Positions 1,020 to 43,951 of a DNA stretch of 64,000 nt are shown piece after piece. The DNA comes from a virus, in IMG/VR virus record IMGVR_UViG_3300020438_004021, positions 64,001 to 128,000 of that record. One strand, 5' to 3'. Every line of letters starts with the position of its first letter. The stretch's first letter is position 1. The notes under the pieces are model-generated. The model worked only from the letters and a program-made list of their open reading frames with translations. It had not been told where the DNA came from and made no database searches. The position numbers were made by a program, and so were the translations under genes.

Positions 1020-3675
1020 TTTACAAGAAGAGAAATCAAACCTCATAGAGTCCAAAATCTCTGCGGTTGACAGTAGTATCCTCACACCTACCTCCACCAA
1101 GGCGGATGCAGTCGCATTGACTGCTAATCCTCTAGGAATATTCGGTGGATTGGTAACTAGAGACGGAAGACTCACCAAACCCATGAATAAGAGAGACCTA
1201 ACAAGGTCAATCTGGTCACAGAATGCACAGGCTGCTGCCGAGAGTTTTTATGATAACCTAGATGACTATTGGTCAGATATGCTTTATTCAAGGAATTCAG
1301 CTGCATATGACCAGACAATATATGATGCTAAGCAGACAATCAATAAGTCTAGACAAAGCAGACCATACACCGAACTGGAATATAAGGGTGAGGTAGAAGA
1401 CCTAGACAACCCTTATAACAGAGGGCAGAGGGCAGGAAATGTAGACGACCTAGAAGGTAGTAGTCAATTCCACCAGTTGCCTAGAGAGATGCCTTATCAG
1501 CCTTCTGGTCCCATGCATTACTATCCCCAAAGACCACCGGTAGATGACCCCGGTCTGTTTCCAGATGACCCTTATGACTCATACCCACCAGGTATAGAGA
1601 CTGACCAGTTCAGCCCTATGCAGTTCCCTAACCCAATGAATAGGCGAGAGACTGACCCAATGCAGCCGAACATACCACCGGTTGTTTTACCACCTTCATT
1701 GCAACCACCTATTGGAATGCCTGGTAACCCTAATCAGGGTCCACCTCAGCTTAAGCCTATGAATAGGAGAGAGACATACCCTGGTCCTTATAATAAGTCT
1801 ACTAGAAGTTCTAGAAGACAAGAACTACTCAATCCTATGAACAGACGACAGACCTATCCGCCTGTTCAGGATATTAAACCAATCAAATTCCCTGATGACG
1901 TCATACCTGGACAGCAGTTGGATAAACCAGTTTCTGTTCCAGCTCCACAAGATAACCCATATCAATATTTCTTAGACCCGAGAAGTCCAGAGAATATGAA
2001 ACCTTATGGACACCCGAGACCTCACGTGGACCCCGACGTAGACCCCGACACACCTGGTCATCAGGTACCTGGTCTACCTCAATGGTTAACACCACCAGAA
2101 GGACCGAGTCATCAGCAAAAGGTAGACAAACTTCAGCAACTTATTGATATATTGCGCCGAGATGGAGAACCAGAGGATGTGCAAAGAGACATCGGGTATC
2201 CACCTTTAATGACTCCAGGCAATGTAGAGGGTTTACCTTCATATGTCGATGGTGAACCAACTGGTGTGCCTCAACCCCGTCATCCCTACAATAAACTCAT
2301 ACCGGGTAATCTAGATGGTTCTCCACTTCATCCCGAAGACTTAGAACCCGGCGGACCTCTGGATAAGTGGTGGCACAATAAATTCCGACAAGATAGGCAA
2401 CAAGTTCAGCAGCAACAGTTGCAAGACTTGCAGCAAGAATTAATACCATTGCTTCAGCAAAATCCTGAATTGTACCAACCTTGGATGATGCAGGGTTTCG
2501 ATGATCGATCTCAAGCTGGTTTCGATGATAACAGAGCACCAGATGACCAGTTTAAACCTCAACTACCGAAGTGGACAGACCCACCGATGGGACCAGAGAA
2601 ACCAAAGGGTCCTGGAAGACTTCCTTTGTCTCCTTCAATTCTACCCAGAGATGATTCTGGAAATCCTCAAGGACCACGTGATTTTGATCATGGTCTGCGT
2701 GACCCGATGGATAATGACCCGACCCTACCCCCTGTCACACCTCAGGATAAGTTAGACTGGTTGGATTACCTCGAAGATTTCTACGATTATTATGGTAAAC
2801 CTCCTAGAAACCAGAGGTCACAAGACGGAAGAGGCGACATTAATCAACCAATTAATTGGTATGATTTGCAGGACCCATCTGAAGTACCAGACGGTGTGAT
2901 GGTAGACAAACCAAATGTTTCCGTTCCTGGCATACAACCAGCAGACCCTCCAGTACCAGTACCTGGTCCATTCGTTCAACAGGACGGTGGTGGAGATGAG
3001 GATGACGGTGGTGACGAAGATCCCATCAGCATTACACCAAGTCTATACCCATATAGACCTAGACCACAACCTGGACCAGTCATAGACACTGACGACGATG
3101 AAGAAGGTGGTGACGATGATGACGATACCGGTGAAGGTGATAGCAGCAGCGAGTTTGATACCGGTGCTTACACCAAGGAACCATACAGACCTAAGGCAGA
3201 CCTTCAGACTGGCATCTTCACCGATCCTGACGATGACGATGACGATGACGATGATGGTGGAACAGGTTTCGATACTGGAGACTATACTAAACTGACACCC
3301 AAGGTAGACCTTCAAATCGGAGTATTTACAGATACAGACGACGATGATGAAGATGAAGGTTATCGTCCTGACATCTATCCTAAGGGCATAACATATGGAA
3401 TGCCACCTGAGCATGCTAAGCACTACTCTGGATTCTTGAATAAAATGGGATGGATGAACGAGGCAAAAGTCTCTAGGGCATGGAGAGATGCCGGAATGCC
3501 TGCTGGTGACGCACGTTCTAGTGATGACAAACCCCTGATGAAGTGGTTAACCGACCTAGAGAAGGAACTGAAGAAAAAAGGTAAGTCATATGATGATGTG
3601 GATGCAGACAATGCAATCCAGATGTATTATCGAAAGAAGAGACCAAACGCAGCTGCTAGGGAGTTAACCAAATGA
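991..3675 (+). CDS. Large Pro/Gln/Asp-rich low-complexity protein, putative internal head protein
   Basis: 894-aa ORF. N-terminus MKTFSELVNSLQEE resembles the T4 capsid-targeting sequence; contains PMNRR repeats and poly-Asp tracts. Confidence 0.6.
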   Translation: MKTFSELVNSLQEEKSNLIESKISAVDSSILTPTSTKADAVALTANPLGIFGGLVTRDGRLTKPMNKRDLTRSIWSQNAQAAAESFYDNLDDYWSDMLYSRNSAAYDQTIYDAKQTINKSRQSRPYTELEYKGEVEDLDNPYNRGQRAGNVDDLEGSSQFHQLPREMPYQPSGPMHYYPQRPPVDDPGLFPDDPYDSYPPGIETDQFSPMQFPNPMNRRETDPMQPNIPPVVLPPSLQPPIGMPGNPNQGPPQLKPMNRRETYPGPYNKSTRSSRRQELLNPMNRRQTYPPVQDIKPIKFPDDVIPGQQLDKPVSVPAPQDNPYQYFLDPRSPENMKPYGHPRPHVDPDVDPDTPGHQVPGLPQWLTPPEGPSHQQKVDKLQQLIDILRRDGEPEDVQRDIGYPPLMTPGNVEGLPSYVDGEPTGVPQPRHPYNKLIPGNLDGSPLHPEDLEPGGPLDKWWHNKFRQDRQQVQQQQLQDLQQELIPLLQQNPELYQPWMMQGFDDRSQAGFDDNRAPDDQFKPQLPKWTDPPMGPEKPKGPGRLPLSPSILPRDDSGNPQGPRDFDHGLRDPMDNDPTLPPVTPQDKLDWLDYLEDFYDYYGKPPRNQRSQDGRGDINQPINWYDLQDPSEVPDGVMVDKPNVSVPGIQPADPPVPVPGPFVQQDGGGDEDDGGDEDPISITPSLYPYRPRPQPGPVIDTDDDEEGGDDDDDTGEGDSSSEFDTGAYTKEPYRPKADLQTGIFTDPDDDDDDDDDGGTGFDTGDYTKLTPKVDLQIGVFTDTDDDDEDEGYRPDIYPKGITYGMPPEHAKHYSGFLNKMGWMNEAKVSRAWRDAGMPAGDARSSDDKPLMKWLTDLEKELKKKGKSYDDVDADNAIQMYYRKKRPNAAARELTK

Positions 3676-5387: not shown

Positions 5388-6305
5388 ATGAAATCAACAA
5401 CGGTAACAATCATATTATTTTTGCTATCATACACGATGGGATGCGAGACTCTGAAGGAGATAAATTCCCATCCGGAAAACACAGCATCAACCATAGTGGA
5501 CAGTGTGAGAGAGCAAAAAGAGCAGACGGACGAGATAACAGAGGCATCGAAAGAGATGGGTGGAAGTCTAGAAAAGATAGACAGTCACGCAGATTCGATT
5601 TTGGACGAGATAGCACTTGTCCCAGAGGACCCGAGTTACAACATAGACCCCACATTAAACTCGATAGAGAACTCAGCAGAGTCGATAAAAGAAGAGATAG
5701 ATTTTGCACAGAGGGAGCAGGTGAGGATAGACGAGGCATTAGAGGACCTAGAGTCCGCAAATGCAAGGGTATCCGCTGCCGTAGGTCAAATAGAGCAGTT
5801 AGAAGACCTAGTAGCAGACTACGAACAGTCCGATAGGGAAGTTCGTAAAGAAGCACTAGAGAACTTACATAGCTTCATCACTTTATTCTTCGTGATAGGC
5901 TTCGGTATGCTCATAGGTGGTGCATTTCTAACATTTTGGGTAAATAGCAAACTGGGTGGGGTAATTCTAGCGATAGGTGTCCTCACTGTAGGGTTTGCAG
6001 CCGCCTCACAATATTACCTTGAAGAAATAGCAGTAGTCGGTCTTGTCGTGTTAGTAATAGGATTCTTAGCATCTCTAGGTGTAGTAGGATGGATGTTGGT
6101 CGATGGTAGAAATGATAAGAAGGCTATTGCTGAAATAGTAGAGCTTATCGAAGAGACTAAAGACCATCTGACACTAGAAGAAAGACAAGAAATCTTCGGT
6201 AGAGATGGTTTCGCATCTAGAATGACTAGCGACCTTACTAAGAAGATTATTGCTCAGGTAAAAATTAAGAACGGATTCAAGAACCTATCTAGGAAGAAGG
6301 TCTAG
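5388..6305 (+). CDS. Putative lipoprotein with acidic coiled coil and C-terminal transmembrane helices
   Basis: Signal peptide ending in a lipobox-like TMGC, a heptad-rich acidic segment, about three hydrophobic helices; GGAG RBS. Confidence 0.65.
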   Translation: MKSTTVTIILFLLSYTMGCETLKEINSHPENTASTIVDSVREQKEQTDEITEASKEMGGSLEKIDSHADSILDEIALVPEDPSYNIDPTLNSIENSAESIKEEIDFAQREQVRIDEALEDLESANARVSAAVGQIEQLEDLVADYEQSDREVRKEALENLHSFITLFFVIGFGMLIGGAFLTFWVNSKLGGVILAIGVLTVGFAAASQYYLEEIAVVGLVVLVIGFLASLGVVGWMLVDGRNDKKAIAEIVELIEETKDHLTLEERQEIFGRDGFASRMTSDLTKKIIAQVKIKNGFKNLSRKKV

Positions 6306-6848
6306 GGTCTCGAAATAGAGGTACTTACAGATGAAGTAGGCATCCACGATATCGCTGACTGGATTCCCCACTTTTTCCCTTCTGGGTGTCATCTCTTCGT
6401 GAAGATTTATTCCGGTTTCTTTAAACCAGGCATCATGCATTTTATCTTTGGTTGCACTACCGCTTCCTGTAGCAAACTTCTTAACTTGAGGTGGTGTCAC
6501 GGTATCGAATTTGGTATTAGAACCCCAAAGTTTATGCTTCAATATGCCAGTATTCTCAGCAACGTCGAATACTCTACCGGTTGCTGCAAAAGCATAACCT
6601 TCCAACATAACGTGGTCGAATGACATTATCCTCTTCATCGCCCAATGGGAAATCATATCAAATCTTTCCTCTTGGCATTTATATTCTTTCAATAAGGACC
6701 CATGTATCATGCCACTAAGGTGTTTACATGCTAGCCTTTTGGTCTTAGTTAAAAAATAAAAACTGCAGTTGTTGAAATCCCAGCGCTCACCAATGTGAGT
6801 ACACAATGCTGGACTGGTCATGCTGTAATCTATGCCTGCTATTCTCAT
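6285..6848 (-). CDS. RuvC-like Holliday junction resolvase / endonuclease
   Basis: IAGIDYS, LEGYAF, VKKFATGSGSATKDKM and DIVDAY match the RuvC-fold catalytic pattern. Confidence 0.8.
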   Translation of the reverse strand: MRIAGIDYSMTSPALCTHIGERWDFNNCSFYFLTKTKRLACKHLSGMIHGSLLKEYKCQEERFDMISHWAMKRIMSFDHVMLEGYAFAATGRVFDVAENTGILKHKLWGSNTKFDTVTPPQVKKFATGSGSATKDKMHDAWFKETGINLHEEMTPRREKVGNPVSDIVDAYFICKYLYFETLDLLPR

Positions 6849-6859
6849 ACTTTTATTTA

Positions 6860-6985
6860 TTAAGATAAGACAATTTTTCCAATTATTAAACCAGTGCAGA
6901 ACCCCATGATTATAACTACGATTCCGGCTGGAGTTTGTGATAATTGTATCTTTCTATCTAACCATTCTTTCAATTTTGCGTTCAC
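6860..6985 (-). CDS. Small membrane protein (41 aa; not in the ORF track)
   Basis: GAGG RBS then GTG; reads MNAKLKEWLDRKIQLSQTPAGIVVIIMGFCTGLIIGKIVLS*; fills the gap between the protease and resolvase genes. Confidence 0.55.
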   Translation of the reverse strand: MNAKLKEWLDRKIQLSQTPAGIVVIIMGFCTGLIIGKIVLS

Positions 6986-7712
6986 TGTCAATTTCCTCTC
7001 TAATCCAATTATAGACGACATCCACTCTTATAGCGGAGTTTTCATATATCATATCTCTATACATGCTGAAGGTCGAGATTATTCCTACCACTACGAACCT
7101 GTTATCGATTAGCATGAATACCGGACCACCAGAATCACCAAACCATACAGAACCTCCCATCGGAAGCATCTTCATTCCAGTGGGTTCGCTCTCTAGAGTT
7201 CCATAATAGAATAGTGTATTCAACTCGCTTCTCTTTTTAAATCCTCTAGAGTATCCAACTGATATCACCGGTGTGCCTTTTCTGACATCTAATAGTGGTT
7301 TAGAATTGATTCCAGATGGGAATATTCCACGAACGTAGGTATCTAGAACGATGACTGCCACATCATATCCCACCTTCATGTCAGCATTGTACTGCGGATG
7401 TTTGGTAGCACATTTGATGCTATACATTTCGTCACCAAATTGTACATAGGACTCGTCATTGGAAATGCAATGAGCAGCCGTAAGCACTATATCTTGCTCG
7501 ATAAGGACTACCGAGCATTTGGGTCTCATGTCTCCAGATAGAAGTCTGCCTACCGATGGATAGTCATCTTCCGTTATGGTTATAAAACCTTCTATACTCG
7601 GAACTATTTCTTTTTTAGGGGGTGGACTCTCTGCACTGGGTTTCACCGTTTTGGCAGCGCATCCCGTAAAGCATAATAAAAGGGCTGATAGATAAACTAT
7701 CTTTCTTAACAT
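6954..7712 (-). CDS. Trypsin-like (S1) serine protease, lipoprotein
   Basis: Catalytic triad motifs LTAAHC, YDVAV, GDSGGP; N-terminal signal with lipobox FTGC. Confidence 0.88.
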   Translation of the reverse strand: MLRKIVYLSALLLCFTGCAAKTVKPSAESPPPKKEIVPSIEGFITITEDDYPSVGRLLSGDMRPKCSVVLIEQDIVLTAAHCISNDESYVQFGDEMYSIKCATKHPQYNADMKVGYDVAVIVLDTYVRGIFPSGINSKPLLDVRKGTPVISVGYSRGFKKRSELNTLFYYGTLESEPTGMKMLPMGGSVWFGDSGGPVFMLIDNRFVVVGIISTFSMYRDMIYENSAIRVDVVYNWIREEIDSERKIERMVR

Positions 7713-7719
7713 GTCCTCT

Positions 7720-8622
7720 TTATTTATAAGAAAAAACGGCTTCCGTGGAAGTTAGGTCGTCTACCTCTTCCTTCCTAAGTCTTCTTCCTACTATCCAAAA
7801 CAACGTCTTCTCCTTGGAGACATCGATATTTTCCCTCATCCATTTATGTGCTTTTCCTTCATAGATGTCGTCTATGAGTTCTCCGTTCACTTCTTCCCAT
7901 ATGGATTTAGAGTAGGCATCCTTAGTCAGGTGTATCTCATACTCTGGGAATTCCAGCACCTCTTGGGGAAAATTCTCATACCTAAACCTGTCTAAGTGTT
8001 GATTAATTGACTTGGTCCTATCGCAGAAGGCTATACCTATGACCCTCTTGACCTTTTTATTAAACTTATGTAGACCCCTGATAATGCCCGCGAACTGGAT
8101 TCCACTACCAACAGGTATTACTAGGTTGTCTAGTTCGTCTGGGATATTTTCTACCTGGTTGGTGACCCCATCGAATATAGCCTCTGGGTTACTCTCGAGG
8201 CTGATCGCGAACTTGATTAATTTATAATTATTATTCGCTATAATCTTCTTCTTAGCACCTGCGTCTATTGCGGTAGTCATACCGTGACCGGCTACGATTC
8301 GTATTTCCGAACCATAGTGCCTGGTCAACCGCATAATATGATGTTTATATAGGGTGTCTTCTTTACAACCACCGACGGCTACTACACACTTAATCCCATA
8401 CTCTTTCGCTACTTTTGCTATAATGGCACTTTGTGGGCTATGGACCGAACTTGCGGTTACAACCCCACCATTGTGGTTCTCGATTATGTCATCTCTGATT
8501 TCATCGAATAGTTGTACTGCCTGCCTTACCTTACCACCATTGATATGGTTGATTCCGTATGGGGCATATAAATCATCCCTCTTGTAGTATACGTCGCCAT
8601 GTTTTTGGATAGGGGTCATCAT
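7720..8622 (-). CDS. PLP-dependent enzyme, fold type II (ACC deaminase / D-cysteine desulfhydrase-like)
   Basis: KRDDL...GGKVRQ (PLP lysine), SVHSPQ and the VPVGSG phosphate-binding loop. Confidence 0.8.
   Translation of the reverse strand: MMTPIQKHGDVYYKRDDLYAPYGINHINGGKVRQAVQLFDEIRDDIIENHNGGVVTASSVHSPQSAIIAKVAKEYGIKCVVAVGGCKEDTLYKHHIMRLTRHYGSEIRIVAGHGMTTAIDAGAKKKIIANNNYKLIKFAISLESNPEAIFDGVTNQVENIPDELDNLVIPVGSGIQFAGIIRGLHKFNKKVKRVIGIAFCDRTKSINQHLDRFRYENFPQEVLEFPEYEIHLTKDAYSKSIWEEVNGELIDDIYEGKAHKWMRENIDVSKEKTLFWIVGRRLRKEEVDDLTSTEAVFSYK
7721..7728 (-). promoter_or_regulatory. T4-type late promoter TATAAATA
   Basis: Exact motif on the minus strand just upstream of the protease gene. Confidence 0.7.
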
Positions 8623-8906: not shown

Positions 8907-10289
8907 ATGGCAACCAAGCAATCGAGACAAAATAGAGCTGACTTCATCAAAGCGATGAAGGAGGCAGGACTTACTTCACCTGTCACCCGTGAACAGGTCA
9001 GGGAAGTCTGCGATTCCACGGGCATCTATGCGGTTCCGCCATCATGGATTACGTACGATGCTTCCCGCAAGACCGGTGCTCTCGGCGAGTACCACATCCC
9101 AGAACTCTCCGAAGGTGCTACCACAACCGCACCCGCCAAGGAGGCAGCACCCATGACTGCTACTATCGTCACCAATAAGGTGAAAACCGCTGATGTCTGC
9201 GATACCACTATGGCACTCGCAATGACTGGTGGTGAGAGCGAGACTCTCGTCCCAGAGCGAATCAGCACTTACGTTCCTTGGGGTCACTTCAAGGACATCG
9301 AGCAAATCATTCGTGCGAAGATGTTCTACCCTTGCTTCATCACTGGTCTGTCCGGCAACGGCAAGACCACGATGGTTGACCAGGTTTGTGCGAAGCTCAA
9401 GCGAGAGCTGTTCCGCATCAACATCACTACTCAGACCGATGAGGACGATTTGCTTGGTGGTTTCCGTCTCATCAACGGTGAGACCAAGTGGTGTGATGGT
9501 CCTGTCGTGAAGGCGATGAAGCAGGGTGGAATTCTTCTCCTCGACGAAATCGACCTTGCGTCACATGCAATCATGTGCCTGCAGCCGGTTCTGGAAGGCA
9601 AGGGTGTCTTCCTCAAGAAGATTGGTCAATGGGTCAAGCCCGCAGCCGGTTTCCAGATTTTCGCTACTGCCAATACCAAGGGTAAGGGCAGCGATGATGG
9701 TCGGTTCATCGGGACCAACGTTCTCAATGAGGCATTCCTCGACCGATTCTCAGTTTGCTTTGAGCAGGCATACGCTCCCAAGAAGGTGGAGCAGAAGATT
9801 CTCACCAAGGCGATGCAATCGCTCGACTGCGAGGACAAGGACTTCACCAAGAAGCTGGTTGACTGGGCAGACATGATTCGTAAGTGCTTCTACGAGGATG
9901 CGGTTGATGAAATCATCACCACACGCCGTCTGGTCAACGTTGCTACGGCATTCTCCATCTTTGGTGACCGTGCCAAGGCAGTTGAGATGGCAGTCACCCG
10001 ATTCGATGACTCCACCAAGGAGGCCTTCCTCACGATGTACGGCAAGATTGATGCCGACACCATCGTGGGCGAGGAGGAGATGGAGGTGGTCGACTACGAA
10101 ACCGCAGAACGTTTCGACATTGACGTGTCTTTTGACGACAAGGACGAAGCGAAGAGACTGGGTGCTAGGTGGGACGTTCCCAAGAAGCAGTGGTATGTCG
10201 AAGGCGACAAGTACCGCAAGAATCCCGAAAGATGGGTAAGATGGAATCCGGTAGCCGTTTCTACCTCCTCCACTCCCGCACCGTTTTGA
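8907..10289 (+). CDS. CobS/MoxR-like AAA+ ATPase with C-terminal DUF5710-like domain
   Basis: Walker A GLSGNGKT, Walker B LLLDEID, ATANTKGKG, NEAFLDRF; C-terminal VSFDDKDEAKRLGARWD..KKQWYV. Confidence 0.85.
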   Translation: MATKQSRQNRADFIKAMKEAGLTSPVTREQVREVCDSTGIYAVPPSWITYDASRKTGALGEYHIPELSEGATTTAPAKEAAPMTATIVTNKVKTADVCDTTMALAMTGGESETLVPERISTYVPWGHFKDIEQIIRAKMFYPCFITGLSGNGKTTMVDQVCAKLKRELFRINITTQTDEDDLLGGFRLINGETKWCDGPVVKAMKQGGILLLDEIDLASHAIMCLQPVLEGKGVFLKKIGQWVKPAAGFQIFATANTKGKGSDDGRFIGTNVLNEAFLDRFSVCFEQAYAPKKVEQKILTKAMQSLDCEDKDFTKKLVDWADMIRKCFYEDAVDEIITTRRLVNVATAFSIFGDRAKAVEMAVTRFDDSTKEAFLTMYGKIDADTIVGEEEMEVVDYETAERFDIDVSFDDKDEAKRLGARWDVPKKQWYVEGDKYRKNPERWVRWNPVAVSTSSTPAPF

Positions 10290-16564: not shown

Positions 16565-16635
16565 CAATATCATCAGCAACCGATAAATACAAGTACACAA
16601 CCAACCAAAACGTTTTATTATGAAGGAGTTTCGTT

Positions 16636-17709
16636 ATGATTGAGTCTGGTAAGGTGAATTTTCTTATTGATGGACAGTGGGGAAGCACTGGCAAGGGCAA
16701 ACTTGCCGGTTACATGTATAGCAGATTTAAGAATCTGAACATGGCAATCAGTGATAATATGCCAAATGCGGGGCATACCTTTACACGCGATGGTAAGAAC
16801 TTCATCTTTAAGGCCCTTCCTACCGGAGTTTTGTTCGATGAAGTGACATCTTTAATCGGTCCACAGGCAGTGATGGGTGAAGAGCAGTTCCAATATGAAA
16901 TGGAGATGGTGAAGAACGAAATAGGTCACTATCCCAAGGTAATCATCCACCCAATGGCAACCGTTGTAACCGCCAGTGACAAAGATGCTGAAGCAGGAAT
17001 CGTCAGCAAAATGGCAAGTACGGGTCAGGGTTCTTGTTCCGCTACCGTTAAGAAGATGTGGAGACGAGGAGAGGCAAACCTCGCCAAGAACAGCAAGGTG
17101 TTTGATGAATTCGTCGGTGATACCCATTCCTTCCTTCATGAAGGACTTAAGAAGGGTGGTGCTGCACTTTCGGAAGGTAGTCAAGGTTTTGACCTTTCAA
17201 TGAATTGCGGACATGCCTACCCACACACGACGTCACGCGATTGCTTGATCGGGAGAATGATGGACAATGCAGGATGCCCAGTCAAGTCTGTAGGTAGCAT
17301 AATCGCTTGTCTAAGGACACTGCCAATTCGCGTTGGAAGCACTGAGAACACGAGCGGTCCTTACTACGACGACCAGAATGAAATCGACTGGAAGACGGTA
17401 TCCGATATGTGTGGTCATGATGTAGAAGAAAGAACTACAGTGACCCAGAGAGTTCGTAGAGTATTTACATTCTCGGAAGAACAGACTAGGAAGTTCTGCG
17501 AATTTGTTCGTCCGGATTATGCATTCCTTAACTTCGTTAACTACTATAAGGAAGAGGGAGACCGACTCAATGCTGTCTCTGAAGTAGCGACAATTCTGGG
17601 TGAGTACGGTTGCGACCTTACACTACTAGGTACTGGTGCTGGACTAGACGATATGGAAATGACCAGCAACGAGCAAATCCTAGGCAAGCAGGAAACACTT
17701 TTTGCATGA
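16636..17709 (+). CDS. purZ: PurZ-type adenylosuccinate-synthetase homologue (N6-succino-2-amino-dAMP synthase)
   Basis: DGQWGSTGKG (Ser where PurA has the catalytic Asp of GDEGKG), PNAGHT, EGSQGF.LS, YPHTTSRD, RTLPIRV, TTVT..VRRVFTFS, FLNFVNY (PurA has TKLD); 357 aa. Confidence 0.82.
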   Translation: MIESGKVNFLIDGQWGSTGKGKLAGYMYSRFKNLNMAISDNMPNAGHTFTRDGKNFIFKALPTGVLFDEVTSLIGPQAVMGEEQFQYEMEMVKNEIGHYPKVIIHPMATVVTASDKDAEAGIVSKMASTGQGSCSATVKKMWRRGEANLAKNSKVFDEFVGDTHSFLHEGLKKGGAALSEGSQGFDLSMNCGHAYPHTTSRDCLIGRMMDNAGCPVKSVGSIIACLRTLPIRVGSTENTSGPYYDDQNEIDWKTVSDMCGHDVEERTTVTQRVRRVFTFSEEQTRKFCEFVRPDYAFLNFVNYYKEEGDRLNAVSEVATILGEYGCDLTLLGTGAGLDDMEMTSNEQILGKQETLFA

Positions 17710-18260
17710 TTCAGCACTGCGTAATAGGACAGGCTGGTAGTGGTAAGTCCACATTCATAGAGAAGAAATTCCCTAGGGACGAACACATCTTCTTTGATAC
17801 GGGTAGCATGCTTAGAAGCATGTTTACCTGTCTCAAGGGGGAACAGACTAGCAAGAACGTTTGGGATTTTGCAAATCCGTTGGTATATAGTGTTTACAAG
17901 CAGTGCTGCACTGTTTCAGAGAACACCGGTTATGAGTTCATAACTGACGGTTTCCCTAGGAACTCATCTCAAGTTAAGAATATGCATATGTTTTTGACTT
18001 CTCTACCCCATAGCAATTCTATCATATTCCATATGCTGGACATTTCAGAAGAAGAGCAGATTAGGAGGATAGAGAAGAGAAATGGAAAGATGAGCGACTA
18101 TCATATTGATAGGATATCACAGTCTAGGAGAGACTTCGAGTCTGTATTGGATGAACTAGACAGGATTATGAGTAGCAGCACTGCGAACAGAACCTTAATA
18201 GAGATAAAGTGGTATAAGCAAGAAGATGGTGATTTCGTTCTGGACAGAAGTTATAAATAG
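17706..18260 (+). CDS. Adenylate-kinase-family nucleoside monophosphate kinase
   Basis: P-loop GQAGSGKST, DTGSMLR (cf. STGDLLR), DGFPRNSSQ; ATG at 17706 overlaps the purZ stop (ATGA). Confidence 0.8.
   Translation: MIQHCVIGQAGSGKSTFIEKKFPRDEHIFFDTGSMLRSMFTCLKGEQTSKNVWDFANPLVYSVYKQCCTVSENTGYEFITDGFPRNSSQVKNMHMFLTSLPHSNSIIFHMLDISEEEQIRRIEKRNGKMSDYHIDRISQSRRDFESVLDELDRIMSSSTANRTLIEIKWYKQEDGDFVLDRSYK
18252..18259 (+). promoter_or_regulatory. Late promoter TATAAATA
   Basis: Exact motif upstream of the 18276 ORF. Confidence 0.65.
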
Positions 18261-18275
18261 TCAGGAGATTTACCT

Positions 18276-18827
18276 ATGGCATCATTCAACTATGAAATTC
18301 CAGACGAATACTTAGAAAATGCATCCGACTTCGGGTTTACTACGGTAGACTCCGATGCTGTAGAACAACAAGAAAGAGATGTAGCCGAAGAAGTAGCGGG
18401 TGAAATATCATCAAATCTTATTGGTCAGATTAGCACCAAGATTAGCGGTCTAGAAGGAAAAATCAATTCTGTCCTTCTTAAAATGCAAGATGAAACAGAT
18501 GAAGACAATGTAGCAGGTGAAATAAATCTGGTTAGGATAGAAGAGAAGATAGATAAGATTCTTGCTATGGAAAATGAAGAACTTGCCAGTAGCATACAAG
18601 CACAAGGTGAGAGCATCCGTGCAGTCATAGATGAAGTAGAAGAGAGAAAAAGCACACTAGAAGACCAATACCTAGATAAAATGAAGGAAATTGAAAAACT
18701 GGTCTTACCTCTATTGGTTAATCTGACCAAGAATCCAGAAAGAGAGTACCTCTTCTGGCCTGATAGGTCTGAAAAAGTCAATAAGCAGATAGGAAAAGTC
18801 CTTTCTATTACAAGAAATGCCGAATAA
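18276..18827 (+). CDS. Conserved acidic coiled-coil protein
   Basis: DFGFTTVD...ILPLLVNLTKNPEREYLFWPDR-type motif seen in T4-like hypotheticals. Confidence 0.65.
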   Translation: MASFNYEIPDEYLENASDFGFTTVDSDAVEQQERDVAEEVAGEISSNLIGQISTKISGLEGKINSVLLKMQDETDEDNVAGEINLVRIEEKIDKILAMENEELASSIQAQGESIRAVIDEVEERKSTLEDQYLDKMKEIEKLVLPLLVNLTKNPEREYLFWPDRSEKVNKQIGKVLSITRNAE

Positions 18828-19497
18828 AAAATTCACCCATCTATCCAATAAGATAACCGAGGATATAGATGCCGTCACCAACAAGGACGGTTCTAGATTC
18901 TACCAAGCACCCAATGGTGAGAAATACCCCAGTGTCACCACAGTCACTGGTTGGGAGAAGAAGGCTTTCTTCGCTGAATGGAGGAGGAAGAACCCCAAGG
19001 AATCTAAAAGGGTTCTGTCCGTAGGAACCAGTATGCACCAGGTAGTAGAAGATTTCTTAGATAATAAAGAAACCTACCTCGATGGTGCATCTCAATCTGC
19101 CATTAATCTTTTTCAGTACATGAAGCCTGTCCTGATAGAGAAGATAGATAATATCAAAGCACAAGAAGTCGCCCTATGGAGTAGTTTATTGGGGTTGGCA
19201 GGAAGGGTGGATTGTGTTGCTGAATATGATGGTAAGTTGTCCATCATAGATTTTAAGAGCAGCAGAAGAGAGAAGAAAGAAGAATATATAGGCAACTACT
19301 TCGCTCAGGCTACCGCATATGCCATAATGTGGAAAGAGTTAACTGGTGAGCAAATAGACCAGATAGTTATACTGATATCTTGTGAAGATGGTAGTGTCCA
19401 GCAATTCATAGATAAACCAGTAAATCACGTAAAAACGCTCAAAGAGATGATAGACAAGTACTATCAGAGTCAGGCACTATCGGAGTATTTAGGTTAA
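18817..19497 (+). CDS. PD-(D/E)XK exonuclease (cyanophage exonuclease type)
   Basis: YPSVTTV, GTSMH, AGRVDCVAEYDGKLSIIDFKS, YFAQATAYA. Confidence 0.88.
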   Translation: MPNKKFTHLSNKITEDIDAVTNKDGSRFYQAPNGEKYPSVTTVTGWEKKAFFAEWRRKNPKESKRVLSVGTSMHQVVEDFLDNKETYLDGASQSAINLFQYMKPVLIEKIDNIKAQEVALWSSLLGLAGRVDCVAEYDGKLSIIDFKSSRREKKEEYIGNYFAQATAYAIMWKELTGEQIDQIVILISCEDGSVQQFIDKPVNHVKTLKEMIDKYYQSQALSEYLG

Positions 19498-21929: not shown

Positions 21930-22832
21930 ATGAGTTTCAGTAGTATGAAAAAGTCTTCGGGAGACAACACGAAGCTGTTGGATGAATTGAGTAAGATTTC
22001 ATCTGGAGACAAGGCAAGTTATAAAGACGATAGATTCTGGAAGCCTGAACGAGACAAGTCCGATAACGGGTTTGCCGTAATTCGGTTCCTTCCTCCAGTA
22101 GAAGGTGAGGATTCACCTTGGGTTCGAATGTTCTCACATGGATTTAAGGGTCGAGGTGGTTGGTACATCGAGAATTGCCCAACTACAATCGGTCGCAAGT
22201 GTCCTTTGTGTGAGGCAAACAGCGAACTATGGAACAGTGGACTTGAGACCGATAAGGATGTAGCAAGAAACCGCAAGCGAAGACTTAACTACATCTCAAA
22301 TATTCTGGTGGTAAGTGACCCCAAGAATCCAGACAACGAAGGTAAGGTCTTCCTCTACAAGTTCGGCAAGAAGATTTTTGATAAGATTATGGAATCTCTT
22401 CAACCAGAATTTCAAGATGAAGAGGCGATTAACCCATTCGACTTCTGGAAGGGTGCTAACTTCAAGTTGAAGGTCCGTAAGGTAGCAGGATTCATCAACT
22501 ATGATAAGAGCGAATTTGACATTCAGTCTGAGATGTTCGATGGTGATGATGGGAAGCTGGAAGAATTGTGGAAGAGTCAGTACCCTCTTCAACCACTAGT
22601 AGCACCCGACCAGTTCAAGAGTTATGATGAACTGAAGGCACGTCTGATGCAGGTACTTGGTGGTGGTAACTCTAATATCGCTACCTCTGCTGATGAGGTC
22701 ACCAACGAAGATGTAAAGAAGGTCGCCGAAGAGCAGTTTGGTACTAATAAAGAAGAGACTGTTTCTTCTAGTGAACCAAAAGAAGAGACCGATGCACTAG
22801 CATACTTTGAGAAACTAGCACAAGAGGATTGA
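21930..22832 (+). CDS. 32: Single-stranded DNA-binding protein gp32
   Basis: DDRFWK, AVIRFLP, WYIENC.TT...CPLC, YKFGKKIFDKI, acidic tail. Confidence 0.97.
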   Translation: MSFSSMKKSSGDNTKLLDELSKISSGDKASYKDDRFWKPERDKSDNGFAVIRFLPPVEGEDSPWVRMFSHGFKGRGGWYIENCPTTIGRKCPLCEANSELWNSGLETDKDVARNRKRRLNYISNILVVSDPKNPDNEGKVFLYKFGKKIFDKIMESLQPEFQDEEAINPFDFWKGANFKLKVRKVAGFINYDKSEFDIQSEMFDGDDGKLEELWKSQYPLQPLVAPDQFKSYDELKARLMQVLGGGNSNIATSADEVTNEDVKKVAEEQFGTNKEETVSSSEPKEETDALAYFEKLAQED

Positions 22833-31843: not shown

Positions 31844-34732
31844 ATGGCAGATATTAACAAAATATTTAACTATCTGAAGAGGCAAGGTGTCAATCTGACA
31901 ACCGGAAGTGCACCTTTGTCTACGGGTAATCCGTCTTTTAAGAATTCTCTGCTTCTTTATGCGGATGAAAATGGAGAATTCCTAACACCACTAATGGTTA
32001 ATGGCATAGTATCAGTTCCCAACAGATCTAATAGTTTGAACGATGCTAATATTACTAGCGGTGTTGATAACACTTTTAAGCAGTCCTTGAAAGCGATCGA
32101 ACGGGCATATAAAAGATGCATACTTAAGGCCATTAGAGATTTTTGCACTGCTAACCCTACAAATGAACAGATATGCGATGAATGGGTACAACCATTTGAT
32201 GGACTTCCTGGTGAAGAATGGGACTTAGAATTGTGGTATGAAAGAATGCCCACAATAATAAAGGCAGCTATTTTGTGCTGCACTCTACATGCAATTGCAG
32301 ATGCGCACTGTGCAAATACAGATGCCTTGTTTAGGATAATAAACAGACAGAGAAGAGACCTAAGGAGGCTGGAAAGGAGATGTGAAGGTGGGGATCCCGG
32401 TGCTTGTTCTGAAGCAGAGGTACTTCGCGAAGCAATTGGTCTCTTTATTACAATGCATGCAAAAATGGTAGATACATGCAGGGCTTTGAGAAATGAGGCG
32501 AATACCTGTACTGAGGGTATTACACCTGAACTGTTTGAACCCGGTTTTCCTAGTCCATATGCGGAAATCACGAAAGAGACACTAAAACTATCTGATAGTC
32601 TCGACAAACTATTGACAAGCTCAGATGACAGCAAGAGCAAGCTTACTATCTCTACGGATTCTATTAAATCTTATCTGACAAAAGAAGAGCTTAAGTTAGT
32701 CATAGACAATGAAGAAGATTTGATAGAAGAAATCAAATCTTCTATAGACACATCTAGGCTAGGTTCTCAGAAGAAGTTAATAGGGGTGGGAAATGCAGTT
32801 ACTTCTGGTGCTCAATCTTCTACCAAGTTAAGAAGTCAGTCAGAGATTGATAAAAGGTCCAGAGGTCTTTTCAAAAATGTGGAGACATTCAACGGTGAGA
32901 CTGGAGATATTTTTGGTGTGAACTCCTTGAATGGTGAGACCGGAAATATTAAGATAAAAGATTTGCCTTTGGTGTCTTCACTAAACGGCTCCACCGGTGT
33001 GGTAGAAGGTGTAAGTGCCTTTAATGGTTCTACTGGTAACGTTGAAGGTGTATCTTCTTTCAATGGAAGTACAGGCGATGTAAAACTAGTTGACCTAATT
33101 GGTGTAAATACATTTAATGGTGTGTCGGGAGACATACAAGGCATCAACACATTCAACAGTGCTACTGGTGCAGTAGAGGGTGTATCCACTTTCAACGGTT
33201 CTACTGGTAGTATTACCTTCGGTTTGAGCAGTTTGGGTATAGCAGCATCAGCAGAAGAAATTAATATCTTAGATGTTAGTGCTTCTTCCATACAAAGCAT
33301 ACTGATAGATGCAGCTTCCGATAGTGTTATAATGAACGATGGTGGTACTGGTGGTTCTCTGAAGCATGTTAGCGTTTCTTCTTGGGAGCAGCATCTTAGA
33401 AATGTATTGGTTTCAACATTCAACAGTGCTACTGGTGCGGTAGAGGGCATCAACACATTCAACAGTGCTACTGGTGCGGTAGAGGGCATCAACACATTCA
33501 ACAGTGCTACTGGTGCAGCAGAAGGTGTCTCTACCTTCAATAGTGCAACCGGTGCAGCAGAAGGTGTCTCTACCTTCAATAGTGCAACTGGTGCGATAGA
33601 TACTTCCACTCTTAGACTTGTCACAAATGGAATATCTGCCAATAACGGAATTTCTTGCGGAGGCAATATAGAACTACCAGAAGATGGTACAATTAGTGTC
33701 GCAGGAGATTCGGAAGTAATAAAACTTAACTTCGGTGGTGGAATATTAGATATCAGTGCTAACCAACTTGATATCCCCAAAAAATTGAGACACAGAGGAG
33801 ATTCTGACACCTACCTTGAGTTCAAAACCGACCATATAGGATTGCAGGCTGGTGGTACTACCTTCGCTTATGGATATTCAGGAGACTTCGTTGCAAATAA
33901 AGGTATGACTGTATTTGGTGATATGTCTATCTCTGGTGATATAATCGTGCAGAGCGGTAAAACCGTCAAAGGAGGAGGTTATACCCTAGGTGCTGGTGGT
34001 GCTACCTTCAGCAGTCCAATTACCATAGAGAACACGGGAGACGTTGCCCTATTCCTCAATGCAGACTCAGACAACTCCGGTGAAAATGATAATCCAATCA
34101 TATCAATGGGTCAAGATGGTGGTGTTGGCAGATTTGAAATCGGTCTGGTGGGAGATGCGGGTCAAAACTACACCGACTCCACTGCAAATGCAGCCTTCTT
34201 GAACACAGGTGCTAGTTACGTCGATTTACAACTCGCCACTCACGATACCGCTAGGGTGACAATACTCAGAACCGGTGAGGTGGGAATAGGCACTAAGACA
34301 CCATCACATGGTCTAGACCTAGAAGGTGGTTTCAATGTGACTGGGGGTGCTACTTTCACAGGTCCAGTAAATGTCACAGACCATGACGTTATTAGACCCA
34401 ACTTAAAAGATTTTTCAGAAACTGTTAACGCAATCGGAACTGTCACCGGAAACACCGCAGTGAACTTTGAAAGCGGCAATGTTCAGACTATTACGATGAA
34501 TGGTAATTGTGAGTTCACATTCACCAACCCACCAGCATCTGGTAAAGCAGGGACAGTTACCTTAATTATCACTAATGGTGGAGCAAACACCACGACTTTC
34601 CACTCCTCTGTGAAATGGCCTAGCGATGTTGCACCTTCATTAACATCTTCTGGTATTGACATCATAACGTTCTTGACAACCGATGCGGGAAGCAACATTT
34701 TCGGATTCGTAGGTGGGTTGAACTTCTCATGA
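31844..34732 (+). CDS. Tail fibre / spike-like virion protein with 13-aa FNG.TG repeats
   Basis: About 13 copies of (V/I)xxFN(G/S)xTGxV; VGIGTKTPSH fibre motif; beta-sandwich C-terminus. Confidence 0.7.
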   Translation: MADINKIFNYLKRQGVNLTTGSAPLSTGNPSFKNSLLLYADENGEFLTPLMVNGIVSVPNRSNSLNDANITSGVDNTFKQSLKAIERAYKRCILKAIRDFCTANPTNEQICDEWVQPFDGLPGEEWDLELWYERMPTIIKAAILCCTLHAIADAHCANTDALFRIINRQRRDLRRLERRCEGGDPGACSEAEVLREAIGLFITMHAKMVDTCRALRNEANTCTEGITPELFEPGFPSPYAEITKETLKLSDSLDKLLTSSDDSKSKLTISTDSIKSYLTKEELKLVIDNEEDLIEEIKSSIDTSRLGSQKKLIGVGNAVTSGAQSSTKLRSQSEIDKRSRGLFKNVETFNGETGDIFGVNSLNGETGNIKIKDLPLVSSLNGSTGVVEGVSAFNGSTGNVEGVSSFNGSTGDVKLVDLIGVNTFNGVSGDIQGINTFNSATGAVEGVSTFNGSTGSITFGLSSLGIAASAEEINILDVSASSIQSILIDAASDSVIMNDGGTGGSLKHVSVSSWEQHLRNVLVSTFNSATGAVEGINTFNSATGAVEGINTFNSATGAAEGVSTFNSATGAAEGVSTFNSATGAIDTSTLRLVTNGISANNGISCGGNIELPEDGTISVAGDSEVIKLNFGGGILDISANQLDIPKKLRHRGDSDTYLEFKTDHIGLQAGGTTFAYGYSGDFVANKGMTVFGDMSISGDIIVQSGKTVKGGGYTLGAGGATFSSPITIENTGDVALFLNADSDNSGENDNPIISMGQDGGVGRFEIGLVGDAGQNYTDSTANAAFLNTGASYVDLQLATHDTARVTILRTGEVGIGTKTPSHGLDLEGGFNVTGGATFTGPVNVTDHDVIRPNLKDFSETVNAIGTVTGNTAVNFESGNVQTITMNGNCEFTFTNPPASGKAGTVTLIITNGGANTTTFHSSVKWPSDVAPSLTSSGIDIITFLTTDAGSNIFGFVGGLNFS
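33412..33597 (+). repeat. Tandem 39-nt repeats within the fibre gene
   Basis: About five units of ACATTCAACAGTGCTACTGGTGCGGTAGAGGGCATCAAC and variants. Confidence 0.85.
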
Positions 34733-35487
34733 GTTTAGGTGCAGCAAGAGCAGCTAGTACGAGACAGTACCAGGTATTGTCTACCACCAACATCACCTCC
34801 ACTGGATCACAGAGTTATACTGTCCCAGAAGGAACAGTTTTCATTGAAATAGAGATGTATGGTGGAGGCGGTGGAGGTGGTGCAGGTCACGTAGCGGGTG
34901 GTAGAGGTGGGTCAACTCATAAAAGAGGAGGAGGTGGTGGTGGTGGTGCTTATGTAAGACATAAACTATTCATCGCCCAGTTAGTTGAGGATGCAGTCAT
35001 CAACTTCACCGTTGGAGCAGGAGGAGCGGGTGGTGGTAATGGTGGTGGACTCTTCCCCAATGATGGTGTTGACGGTGGGGACACCACATTAGTCAATATC
35101 GTCGCGCCTGGAGGTGGTAGTACCACAAGTTTGTCTGGACCTTCTGCCGGTGGTGGGGCTAAAGGACTCAAAGGGAATAACAATGCTGCCGGAGGTCAGG
35201 TAGGAGTGGCAGCGGATGGAAACATAACCAACACGAACGGCAGTGCAGGGGAAGCACAGTCTGGTATTGGGTCTAGTGGTACTACTATTGCAGGTGGTGA
35301 CGGTGGTGATGCTGGAGGTCCAGATGGTGGTGCAGGTGGTGACGGAGGTATCACAGGCTTTTCTGCTAAGGGCTTCGCAGATAACGGTGCTGCTCCAGGC
35401 GGTGGTGGTGGTGGAGGTGCGACTACTGTTGAAGACGATGGTGGTTCAGGTGCTGATGGAAAAGTTATTGTAAAGGCATTTGGATGA
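34729..35487 (+). CDS. Glycine-rich domain virion protein
   Basis: YTVP...EMYGGGGGGG...GGGGGG...TVGAGG.GG...G.DG.V.V pattern. Confidence 0.75.
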   Translation: MSLGAARAASTRQYQVLSTTNITSTGSQSYTVPEGTVFIEIEMYGGGGGGGAGHVAGGRGGSTHKRGGGGGGGAYVRHKLFIAQLVEDAVINFTVGAGGAGGGNGGGLFPNDGVDGGDTTLVNIVAPGGGSTTSLSGPSAGGGAKGLKGNNNAAGGQVGVAADGNITNTNGSAGEAQSGIGSSGTTIAGGDGGDAGGPDGGAGGDGGITGFSAKGFADNGAAPGGGGGGGATTVEDDGGSGADGKVIVKAFG

Positions 35488-35491
35488 AGAA

Positions 35492-35499
35492 TATAAATA
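35492..35499 (+). promoter_or_regulatory. Late promoter TATAAATA
   Basis: Exact motif, intergenic. Confidence 0.7.
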
Positions 35500-35519
35500 C
35501 CGATAAGAGGATTATTTGA

Positions 35520-35786
35520 ATGGCAGGAGCATCCAGAATAGTAATAGATTCTGCTGGTGGTATAATACTGGGACCTGGTTCTCAGTCGGTATTCATCAAT
35601 GGTCTTAGTGCCAGTGTATTAGGAGACGCTGTTGAAGGACATGGGAATGGTAGTCACTCTTCTCCGAACGTGGTGACAGCATCCTCTAGTGTTTTTGCGG
35701 ATGGTCAAGGAATGGTAGGCGAGACAAGTGTCACTAGTTGTGGCAAGAGTCCTACTGGTTCTGGTGACGTTTTTATAGGAGATTGA
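35520..35786 (+). CDS. PAAR-repeat spike tip protein (gp5.4-like)
   Basis: GS.SVFING...LGD...H...H....SSSVF.DG......SCG.....GS.DVFIGD. Confidence 0.85.
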   Translation: MAGASRIVIDSAGGIILGPGSQSVFINGLSASVLGDAVEGHGNGSHSSPNVVTASSSVFADGQGMVGETSVTSCGKSPTGSGDVFIGD

Positions 35787-35787
35787 T

Positions 35788-36633
35788 ATGACATACTTTC
35801 ACGAGACATTTCCGACCCAAGACATCAAAGACGGAATCACTTTCGCAGTTAACATCCCTTCTGCAGAATTAACAGAAGAAGAAAAAGATGTAATTAATTT
35901 AGCATTGAGTGGTAACCACCCACTGGCAAATCCATATGGTTCAAGGATTGAGGATAGGGCATCTTCTGCCGATTCAATAGCAGATATTTTGTATGGTTTG
36001 GTGAATAGCATACCTCCCCCACCAGGTCAGGCTAGCGAACTACAACTGGCACTCCTCAGGTCAGACACTGCTGATAACTTCGCAAGAATAGCCGACCACC
36101 TGAACAACGAATTTAGCGAGACCGGAACCGGTCCAAGTTTCAAAGAGCACACGGATAGGATAAGTGGGGAGACTCTACAGTCTGACGGTGAGAGATACCC
36201 TTTCACTGGTGTCCAAGGGATTGCTAGGGCATATAACGGAATGAGAGAATCCATGAGGAACGAAGGTGAACCTGTTGAGGATAACTACTCAATTCTATTC
36301 ACAAGCATACTGAGAGCAGGTAAAGACGTGATGAGAGACGTCGAAAGTCTAGTCACGTCCGATACCTCTATCTCAGGGATAACGATATCAGAAATTACAC
36401 CGGCGGACATCGAAGGGATATCAGCAGACTCATTCAGGGTCGCCAATGGTATCATAGGGTTAATAGAAGAAGATAATGGTAATTTTGATGAAGCATTGAA
36501 CTATGTGAAGGCTTATGGTCTGGGTAGCATGATACTTGGTATGAATAGAGATACCTATTTTGGCAAGAGACTACTAGACGAGTCAGGAATAGCTACTGAG
36601 GAACTTCGTCAAGAACTAGATGATATTGTTTGA
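35788..36633 (+). CDS. Hypothetical acidic protein in the baseplate cluster
   Basis: 281-aa ORF immediately after the PAAR gene. Confidence 0.6.
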   Translation: MTYFHETFPTQDIKDGITFAVNIPSAELTEEEKDVINLALSGNHPLANPYGSRIEDRASSADSIADILYGLVNSIPPPPGQASELQLALLRSDTADNFARIADHLNNEFSETGTGPSFKEHTDRISGETLQSDGERYPFTGVQGIARAYNGMRESMRNEGEPVEDNYSILFTSILRAGKDVMRDVESLVTSDTSISGITISEITPADIEGISADSFRVANGIIGLIEEDNGNFDEALNYVKAYGLGSMILGMNRDTYFGKRLLDESGIATEELRQELDDIV

Positions 36634-36636
36634 TTG

Positions 36637-36644
36637 TATAAATA
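36637..36644 (+). promoter_or_regulatory. Late promoter TATAAATA
   Basis: Exact motif, intergenic. Confidence 0.7.
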
Positions 36645-36677
36645 ATAGTAGTTTACTATAGATTTAGAGGAACCCCC

Positions 36678-37343
36678 ATGACCACAGAGACCATAGAAAT
36701 AGTTGACAACTCGTTCAACAATATTGATATATTGGGGTCTTGGGTCGAGGTGGGTATGGTGATAGGTGCAACAATAGTTGGTTTCATCATACTGCTACCA
36801 ACTGTCAGACATTTTCTCAAATTAAACAAAACCATTCACCCGTGTTCTACCAAGTTCAGGGGTGTACACTCTAGAGTTCATGAGTTTCTGACTGAGTTGA
36901 GAGTTAAACTGCATGCCGATAGAGCAGTAATATTACAATTCCATAATGGTGGTTCTTTCCTAGATGGGTCTTCTATGAAGAAATTCTCGTCTACTCATGA
37001 ATCTTGCTCGGTAGGTGTATCTGAGACCGCCAGTGTTAGGGCTGGTCTTCTTGCATCTAACTACATAGACATGCTGGAACATTTATCTTTGAACACACCT
37101 GACATCCATGCTACCTCCAGCATATCTGACTGCCAGTTTAGAAGGCATCTAGAATCCAACCATACCTTGGTATATAGTATGATGCCCATAAAAGACGTTA
37201 GAGGTGTTTCAGTTATGGGTTGTCTGTTGATAGAATGGTGTAATTGGGACAGGGCAGACCTAATAGACGAAGATAAAGTATCCGTAATCATCCCTGAGTA
37301 TACTAGACATATCTCAGGTCAACTACATACTGGGGGGACATGA
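36678..37343 (+). CDS. Single-TM protein with GAF-like domain (holin T-like architecture)
   Basis: N-terminal hydrophobic helix, then LTELR..LHADRA.ILQFHNG....G.SM.KFS.THE. Confidence 0.6.
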   Translation: MTTETIEIVDNSFNNIDILGSWVEVGMVIGATIVGFIILLPTVRHFLKLNKTIHPCSTKFRGVHSRVHEFLTELRVKLHADRAVILQFHNGGSFLDGSSMKKFSSTHESCSVGVSETASVRAGLLASNYIDMLEHLSLNTPDIHATSSISDCQFRRHLESNHTLVYSMMPIKDVRGVSVMGCLLIEWCNWDRADLIDEDKVSVIIPEYTRHISGQLHTGGT

Positions 37344-43927: not shown

Positions 43928-43951
43928 TTTACCTAGGAGCGATTTCCAAAG

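Follow-up and report, generated by a model that had tools for sequence, protein, structure and literature searches.

We analyzed 64,000 nucleotides of viral DNA, positions 64,001-128,000 of IMG/VR record IMGVR_UViG_3300020438_004021, which carry a candidate for the first gene of a pathway to 2-aminodeoxyadenosine triphosphate (dZTP), the nucleotide of 2-aminoadenine (Z). This whole stretch is called the window, and gene coordinates refer to it unless marked "contig". The original prediction, given for the span from 16636 to 18260, had read there an adenylosuccinate-synthetase (PurA) homolog of the type called PurZ. The purZ-type open reading frame (ORF) runs from 16636 to 17709, and the remainder of the span is a second gene, encoding a protein that resembles adenylate kinases. 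The purZ stop codon and the kinase ATG overlap as ATGA. Positions of these genes, their neighbors and the other purine genes of the phage are collected in Table 1.

The motifs on which the prediction rested were read directly in the 357-aa product, which matched PF00709 (adenylosuccinate synthetase) with an E-value of 6.3e-27. Residues 12-22 are DGQWGSTGKGK, with GSTGKG at 16-21, and FLNFVNY occupies residues 297-303 (AFLNFVNYY, 296-304). The comparison with reference enzymes was borne out for the following motifs: E. coli PurA carries QWGDEGKG, and PurZ of cyanophage S-2L carries QYGSTGKG together with FLNFAQY. Ser17 stands in the place of the catalytic Asp of PurA, aligning with S14 of phiVC8 PurZ and D14 of E. 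coli PurA, and F300 and Y303 are the residues of a PurZ-type ATP pocket.

Membership on the PurZ side was upheld by structural, profile, residue and tree comparisons. The closest Protein Data Bank chains by phmmer were 6FM1, 6FKO and 6TNH (E = 6.8e-55), for which the aligned sequence was phiVC8 PurZ. Lower matches included 7ODX, named PurZ (2.3e-29), short 340-aa adenylosuccinate synthetases (8e-24), 7VF6, named "PurA-like" (3.5e-20), and E. coli-type PurA (about 4e-13). The top NCBIfam model was PurZ (NF038379) at 211.7 bits, with every PurA model at or below 137 bits, and PHROG 1211 matched with an E-value of 4.7e-61. In the set of 50,697 phage records used for homology searches, 211 matched the protein, all below 60% identity; the best among the matches listed were small purZ-annotated phages at 35-39% (BUCT555, Vibrio K-phages, phiVC8 and ZP6). 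Twelve positions that discriminate PurZ from PurA are named in bioRxiv 2025.10.22.683976, and 8 of them are identical to phiVC8 PurZ, including S14, T262, F295 and Y298 in phiVC8 numbering. T267, F300 and Y303 are kept as in phiVC8 PurZ, Thr278 agrees with other PurZs, and F12 of phiVC8 is Trp15 here. Both Ser17 and Trp15 were invariant in 15 of 15 diverse aligned relatives, and all 12 pocket positions checked were identical across six aligned members of the clade. By these sequence comparisons, the ORF is a genuine PurZ-family gene. It is also under strong purifying selection: the ratio of nonsynonymous to synonymous substitution rates (dN/dS) was 0.037-0.085 in the 3 of 15 pairs with unsaturated dS, and that of the kinase gene was 0.098-0.111 in pairs with unsaturated dS. 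Members of the PurZ clade share 66-93% identity, and 974 homologs were found at E <= 1e-10.

Phylogenetic trees placed the protein more precisely. Tree 1 held 53 rows and was rooted on two Asp-type PurAs, and tree 2 held 68 rows (59 distinct IMG/VR loci and 9 references) labeled by neighboring genes. Both were built without archaeal PurA, for which a scan of genome contigs returned only five Ser-type loci. In tree 1, the PurZ0 proteins of phages Wayne and Frizzle branched off first. The query fell in a 9-row clade with a support of 99 in the Shimodaira-Hasegawa-like approximate likelihood ratio test (SH-aLRT), within a 38-row environmental clade (91) that was sister to a clade of five known PurZs (97). 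PurZ0 and Asp-type PurA lay outside the grouping of the query with the characterized PurZs (SH-aLRT 94-98). The phylogeny that the prediction had called for therefore put the query with PurZ rather than with PurZ0 or Asp-type PurA, archaeal PurA being left out. In tree 2, the query sat in a 43-row clade (SH-aLRT 95) in which no locus had a match to DatZ, the dATP-clearing enzyme. Every locus with such a match fell outside that clade: seven grouped with the known PurZs (12-row clade, 99) and three were placed elsewhere. A family-A polymerase match was present within the 8-kb flanks of 25 of the 32 non-T4-like rows of the 43-row clade. That 43 of 68 tree rows fall in a branch without detected DatZ suggests that most environmental PurZ systems operate unlike the characterized ones.

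The kinase gene directly downstream encodes an adenylate-kinase-family nucleoside monophosphate (NMP) kinase, matching PF00406 (ADK) at 33 bits against a cut-off of 26.8. Among 70 IMG/VR purZ loci surveyed, 19 had a homolog: every one of the 9 T4-like loci that continue beyond purZ, plus 10 from other lineages with PurZs at 40-47% identity. In all 19 it lay on the purZ strand, directly downstream of that gene, and when mapped on the PurZ tree the kinase label changed only twice (54 rows with at least 1.5 kb downstream). Residues G8, G13, K14, R37, D81-G82, P84-R85 and Q89 were invariant in all 25 kinase sequences and comprise the P-loop, the NMP-site Arg, DGFPR and a Gln. We take R37, the Arg of DGFPR and Q89 to be the counterparts of R36, R88 and Q92 of E. 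coli Adk. The predicted fold (mean predicted local distance difference test score, 88.7) resembles short adenylate kinases and UMP/CMP kinases at a template modeling score of about 0.6. Relatives formed 39 protein clusters in a large protein collection; tblastn against the 50,697 phage records gave no match at E <= 1e-3, and a single-protein pattern scan of IMG/VR, a method that reaches close relatives only, gave none. Because the two genes stay paired and the Gln, which would read a 6-amino purine, is conserved, the enzyme is a candidate kinase for 2-aminodeoxyadenosine monophosphate (dZMP). It is then also a candidate for the missing step from dZMP to the diphosphate (dZDP), which the accessible text of bioRxiv 2025.10.22.683976 ascribes to host GMP kinase, the sole sense in which "kinase" appears there; the word is absent from the corresponding text of PMC12884076.

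In the non-T4-like loci with a kinase, the next gene is of the dUTPase family, so that purZ, kinase and dut form a cassette, close to which lies a family-A polymerase. This dUTPase-family gene scores higher on a hidden Markov model (HMM) of the dUTPase family of PurZ0 phages than on the Dut of the query phage. The cassette was seen in loci L046, L051, L052, L057, L065, L066, L073 and L091 (IMG/VR contigs of 12-47 kb), with a family-A polymerase match within the 8-kb flanks of all eight except L073 and DatZ detected in none. It is not described in the accessible texts of PMC12884076 and bioRxiv 2025.10.22.683976. A jumbo phage contig (262,650 bp; completeness rating, 100%; L050, L107, L110) has a PurZ homolog (45% identical), its own PurB (40% identical), a dUTPase-family neighbor, and no family-A polymerase within 8 kb.

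Elsewhere, the contig encodes adenylosuccinate lyase (PurB), lying between gp47-like and gp46-like genes, and an IMP dehydrogenase (IMPDH)-like protein without CBS domains, whose gene overlaps that of an adenosine deaminase. The IMPDH-like protein scored 392.9 bits on TIGR01302, below the cut-off of 481.5, with GMP-reductase models at or below 201 bits; the adenosine deaminase scored 525 bits against a cut-off of 419. PurB and the IMPDH-like gene were present in both other large T4-like purZ contigs and adenosine deaminase in one of them, the second contig ending about 1 kb past its IMPDH-like gene. A single-protein pattern scan of IMG/VR, which reaches close relatives only, found two relatives of the IMPDH-like protein, and tblastn searches with it and with PurB gave no T4-like cyanophage or pelagiphage among the matches listed. 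The presence of PurB together with PurZ in a phage is no novelty as such, since some PurZ0 phages (Frizzle and Streptomyces phages) carry genes annotated as PurB-like. Compared with a relative of 136,012 bp (L105), the query phage is 92% identical in PurZ, 98% in the IMPDH-like protein and 47% in PurB, and this divergence of PurB suggests that the allele was replaced or that the genomes have a mosaic history. The coupled kinase, PurB, the IMPDH-like gene and adenosine deaminase had no place in the original prediction and are the most informative features of the system.

Two further nucleotide genes were considered as analogs of PurZ0-system enzymes. The phage dUTPase (197 aa) was rejected as an analog of DutZ: it matched purZ-linked dUTPase genes only weakly, and its nearest relatives were full-length dUTPases of large myoviruses outside the 211 purZ-matching records. 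The DUF4406 protein, of the nucleoside deoxyribosyltransferase (NDT) superfamily, had no phmmer match to the Wayne and Frizzle loci or to any purZ locus when considered as an analog of DmtZ; its homologs are spread over 624 diverse phage records, and it stays a candidate only.

Table 1. Genes and signals at the purZ locus and purine genes elsewhere in the contig. Coordinates are those of the window unless marked "contig".
Feature	Position	Strand	Evidence or remark
Ribosome-binding site AAGGAG	16623..16628	+	Read from the sequence; 7 nt upstream of the purZ ATG
purZ-type gene, 357 aa	16636..17709	+	ORF call, Pfam, PDB, NCBIfam, PHROG, motif alignment, tree, dN/dS
Adenylate-kinase-family NMP kinase, 184 aa, candidate dZMP kinase	17706..18260	+	Pfam, conserved pairing, fold model
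183-aa ORF, no family match	18276..18827	+	Position 3' of the kinase shared by loci L003 and L005 (2 of 7 related loci)
PD-(D/E)XK / Cas4-like exonuclease	18817..19497	+	Family match; conserved downstream neighbor
gp32-type single-strand DNA-binding protein	21930..22832	+	phrog_224, E = 8.8e-114; T4-like marker
Adenylosuccinate lyase PurB	contig 2188-3642		TIGR00928, 331.5 bits (cut-off 326.2)
CBS-less IMPDH-like gene overlapping adenosine deaminase gene	contig 44858-46967		TIGR01302; deaminase model

To judge from its gene content, the phage is a T4-like myovirus with a family-B polymerase. The T4-type surroundings described by the prediction were confirmed by virion genes (gp20 portal, gp18 sheath, gp17 large terminase TerL and gp6 wedge) and by replication genes (gp32, gp43-type PolB, UvsX and a gp41-like, DnaB-like helicase), with gp46/47, RNase H, gp45, gp44, gp62 and RegA in addition. 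The expectation of a family-B enzyme also held, PolB being found and a family-A polymerase remaining undetected in the whole contig. The gp20 protein shares 53% identity with the portals of cyanomyoviruses and of Pelagibacter phage Mosig. The contig is 136,240 bp long with 42.7% G+C, and its bases 1-115 recur at 136125-136240 (116 nt), one T in a homopolymer differing. In the 136,012-bp relative, purB, the IMPDH-like gene and purZ are all shifted by a roughly constant 34-39 kb. Because of this terminal repeat and constant offset, both genomes are probably complete and circularly permuted, and on the same grounds we set aside the CheckV label of "linear, 75% complete". A megablast search of 8 kb against the 50,697 phage records gave no match and therefore no close cultured relative. 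Near-identical sequence was present in 20 public runs from 14 studies, 10 of which are possibly the source of this DNA, and the phage is a common, widespread and uncultured marine one. All 24 public runs listed are stored as Logan contigs that lack a library description.

We consider it probable (roughly 0.6) that the ORF encodes a working PurZ-type succino-aminodeoxyadenylate synthase in a phage-encoded dZTP route of this probably complete, ~136 kb T4-like myovirus. Homology and the conserved pocket residues suggest that PurZ would couple deoxyguanosine monophosphate (dGMP) to aspartate at the expense of ATP or dATP. The phage PurB, an identified enzyme with a presumed substrate, would remove fumarate to give dZMP, and the coupled adenylate-kinase-like enzyme, given its conserved pairing and 6-amino-reading Gln, would produce dZDP. 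Host nucleoside diphosphate kinase would then supply dZTP, which the gp43-type family-B polymerase may put opposite T. The adenosine deaminase and the CBS-less IMPDH-like enzyme would push adenine-derived purines to guanylate, the precursor of dG and dZ. The phage module from dGMP to dZDP is apparently self-sufficient, and Z is likely to be present in the DNA of this phage, putative as the assignment is. Substitution of A by Z is possibly partial, because a means of keeping dATP out was not identified. Only tentatively can the proposal be extended to a globally distributed marine T4-like clade that replaces all or most adenine by 2-aminoadenine with a gp43 replisome, using phage PurZ, PurB and a dZMP-specific kinase, a funnel of adenosine deaminase and IMP dehydrogenase, and a dATP exclusion that does not depend on DatZ.

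Several observations weigh against the dZTP route. The PurZ score on NF038379 is below the curated cut-off of 300 bits, Trp15 and Gly145 agree with E. coli PurA and not with phiVC8 PurZ, and the 43-row branch without detected DatZ has no characterized member. Ordinary purine interconversion likewise relies on enzymes such as PurB, the IMPDH-like protein and adenosine deaminase, and the phage dUTPase resembles ordinary large-myovirus dUTPases, not purZ-linked ones. The genome search proposed by the prediction succeeded for the polymerase type, gp43 being of family B, and detected neither datZ nor mazZ in the whole contig. DatZ was sought with PF01966 (HD), PF13023 (HD_3), phmmer with phiVC8 DatZ and an HMM; reference HMMs were built from 5 DatZ, 3 MazZ, 2 DUF550-type and 4 PolA sequences. 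For MazZ/DUF550, the whole contig was negative with PF03819 (MazG), PF04447 and local HMMs, a weak search given that the PF04447 control was silent everywhere. Family-A polymerase/DpoZ was likewise not detected in the whole contig (PF00476, the local PolA HMM and phiVC8 DpoZ), and phiVC8 p26 had no match there. These whole-contig searches with named families and reference HMMs did not identify a dATP-removing enzyme; most ORFs of less than 100 aa and a few longer ones (e.g., of 1224, 773 and 675 aa) were outside the family-library scans. A CcrM-like N6-adenine DNA methyltransferase is encoded at contig 43911-44891 (PF01555, E = 1.4e-57), and adenine methylases would be odd companions for an adenine-free genome. 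Finally, TGCA, AGCT and CATG are avoided, with observed/expected ratios (O/E) of 0.49-0.67 compared with 0.86-1.34 in three Z-genome controls, which hints, if weakly, that sites containing A remain open to restriction.

Over the whole contig, O/E was 0.21 for GATC, 0.28 for GGCC, 0.22 for GCGC, 0.49 for AGCT and 0.60 for TGCA, and GGTACC occurred 2 times where 28 were expected; the set of avoided sites differs between clade members. GATC avoidance was rejected as a test for Z. It says nothing on Z because Z-genome controls (phiVC8, 0.03; PMBT28, 0.01) and the non-PurZ T4-like phage Mosig (0.05) are low as well.

An unlikely alternative, and the best placed of those considered, is that dZTP is made but A is replaced only partly, or that Z nucleotides serve another end, such as blunting restriction or nucleotide-sensing defenses. 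This alternative arises because a dedicated dATP-clearing enzyme and a Z-selective polymerase were not detected. In S-2L, exclusion of A rests on DatZ and not on the polymerase. PurZ, PurB and the kinase are present here in a probably complete genome in which searches for DatZ, MazZ, DUF550 and DpoZ were negative, and several A/T-containing 4-mers are avoided; both observations favor this alternative. Yet the dUTPase, the DUF4406/nucleoside-deoxyribosyltransferase-like protein or an unrecognized enzyme could clear dA nucleotides, and most short ORFs and some longer ones lay beyond the family-library scans. The lack of detected DatZ is moreover common to the whole 43-row branch, most of whose non-T4-like rows have a family-A polymerase match.

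We regard as improbable a second alternative, in which the gene is an ordinary PurA-like auxiliary metabolic gene. With PurB, the IMPDH-like protein and the deaminase, it would rebalance ribonucleotide purines in a nutrient-poor marine host (inosine monophosphate to adenosine or xanthosine monophosphate, adenosine to inosine), the kinase would be a plain adenylate kinase, and the DNA would contain only A. The canonical roles of the three interconversion enzymes, the negative searches for DatZ, MazZ and DpoZ in the contig, the PurA-like Trp15 and Gly145, the adenine methyltransferase and the Arg and Gln that the kinase retains from adenylate kinases are all consistent with such a gene. They are set against the Ser in place of the catalytic Asp in every one of the 15 relatives, the retention of F300, Y303 and T267 of the PurZ-type pocket, scores for PurZ far above those for any PurA, and the grouping with PurZ in the trees. 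The purZ-kinase pair also recurs in other lineages beside a dUTPase-family gene that scores higher on the PurZ0-phage dUTPase model than on the Dut of the query phage, and near a family-A polymerase, which argues against an ordinary PurA-like gene. That purZ is a decaying or non-functional relic of horizontal transfer is very improbable, for although its score is below the NCBIfam cut-off, the frame is intact and preceded by a ribosome-binding site, dN/dS is low, homologs are numerous, and the aligned clade members agree at all the pocket positions checked.

Among the neighbors of the purZ-kinase pair, the Cas4-like exonuclease probably serves replication or recombination rather than Z synthesis. 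Besides the CcrM-like enzyme, a 535-aa protein with a weak methylase match is encoded at contig 5699-7306. A trypsin-like peptidase (252 aa) and a pyridoxal-phosphate-dependent (PALP) enzyme (300 aa) lie at window 6954-8622 on the minus strand, amid plus-strand early genes. Marine auxiliary genes (window 8907-10289, plus strand; contig 34094-37937, 38280-39449 and 47887-49850) encode a CobS-like ATPase, GlnII-type glutamine synthetase and class II ribonucleotide reductase, as well as a phosphate-porin-like protein, PstS and Hsp20. At contig about 16.3-25.7 kb lies a run of sugar-nucleotide genes that may serve the cell surface or DNA glycosylation; it includes a PseB-like 4,6-dehydratase, an HAD phosphatase, a nucleotidyltransferase, glycosyltransferases of families GT10 and GT2, two epimerases, a methyltransferase and a cupin-type isomerase.

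The original prediction held that such a pathway would be undescribed in a T4-like phage. In the literature searched, most subscription papers and supplements lying outside its scope, no paper was found that reports PurZ from a myovirus or T4-like phage, diaminopurine in a myovirus, or PurZ with an adenylate kinase. The terms myovir, T4-like, PolB, "family B" and "pol B" are absent from the texts of PMC12884076 and bioRxiv 2025.10.22.683976, supplements excluded. The cultured Flavobacterium phage MaF61 (PQ858689.1, 168 kb), already in GenBank and unremarked, encodes a 447-aa Ser-type (FGSSGKG) homolog beside TerL. The 112.7 of 167.8 kb examined also hold PolB, a weak DatZ-like match (ORF97) and an annotated guanylate kinase (ORF95). 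MaF61 is a myovirus by transmission electron microscopy, and PurZ is not mentioned in the accessible part of that report (PMC13269007). The Z genomes described so far belong to small podo- and siphoviruses that have DatZ and, in most cases, a special family-A polymerase. If the dZTP route is real, Z-DNA made by a PolB T4-type phage would extend this chemistry to further hosts and add to the replisomes known to handle Z, and modified DNA, if present, could bias marine virome methods that rely on restriction or ligation.

The system resembles the PurZ-DatZ-MazZ/DUF550-DpoZ cluster of phiVC8 and of Acinetobacter and Salmonella phages (e.g., PMBT28) in its Ser-for-Asp PurZ and F/Y ATP pocket, and the shared purpose is presumably dZMP from dGMP. 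It differs in that DatZ, MazZ/DUF550 and family-A polymerase were undetected, the 136-kb T4-like host uses PolB, PurB and an NMP kinase are phage-encoded, and PurZ is about 30-39% identical and on a separate branch. The S-2L record is annotated with PurZ, MazZ, DatZ and PrimPol and no family-A polymerase, so a Z genome without DpoZ is possible; there DatZ and MazZ adjoin purZ in a 45-kb siphovirus-type genome, whereas neither enzyme was detected in the query contig. The PurZ0-DutZ-DmtZ system of actinophages (Arthrobacter phage Wayne and Gordonia phages Ghobes and Frizzle; PMC12884076, accessible text) likewise lacks DatZ and uses other nucleotide-pool enzymes. Its likeness to the query genome extends to a dUTPase and a DUF4406 gene, and to the PurB-like lyase annotated in Frizzle and Streptomyces phages. 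Unlike it, the query has a PurZ-type F300/Y303 pocket and PolB rather than DpoZ-1, its dUTPase and DUF4406 protein have no special likeness to those of the system, and PurZ0 branches first in the tree. The T4 pathway to hydroxymethylcytosine uses gp42 dCMP hydroxymethylase, gp56 dCTPase and gp1 dNMP kinase. The base and the enzymes are different, and the query yielded no counterpart of gp56, the enzyme that clears the normal dNTP, but by analogy the logic would be alike, with a modified dNMP made, phosphorylated by the phage's own kinase and fed to gp43.

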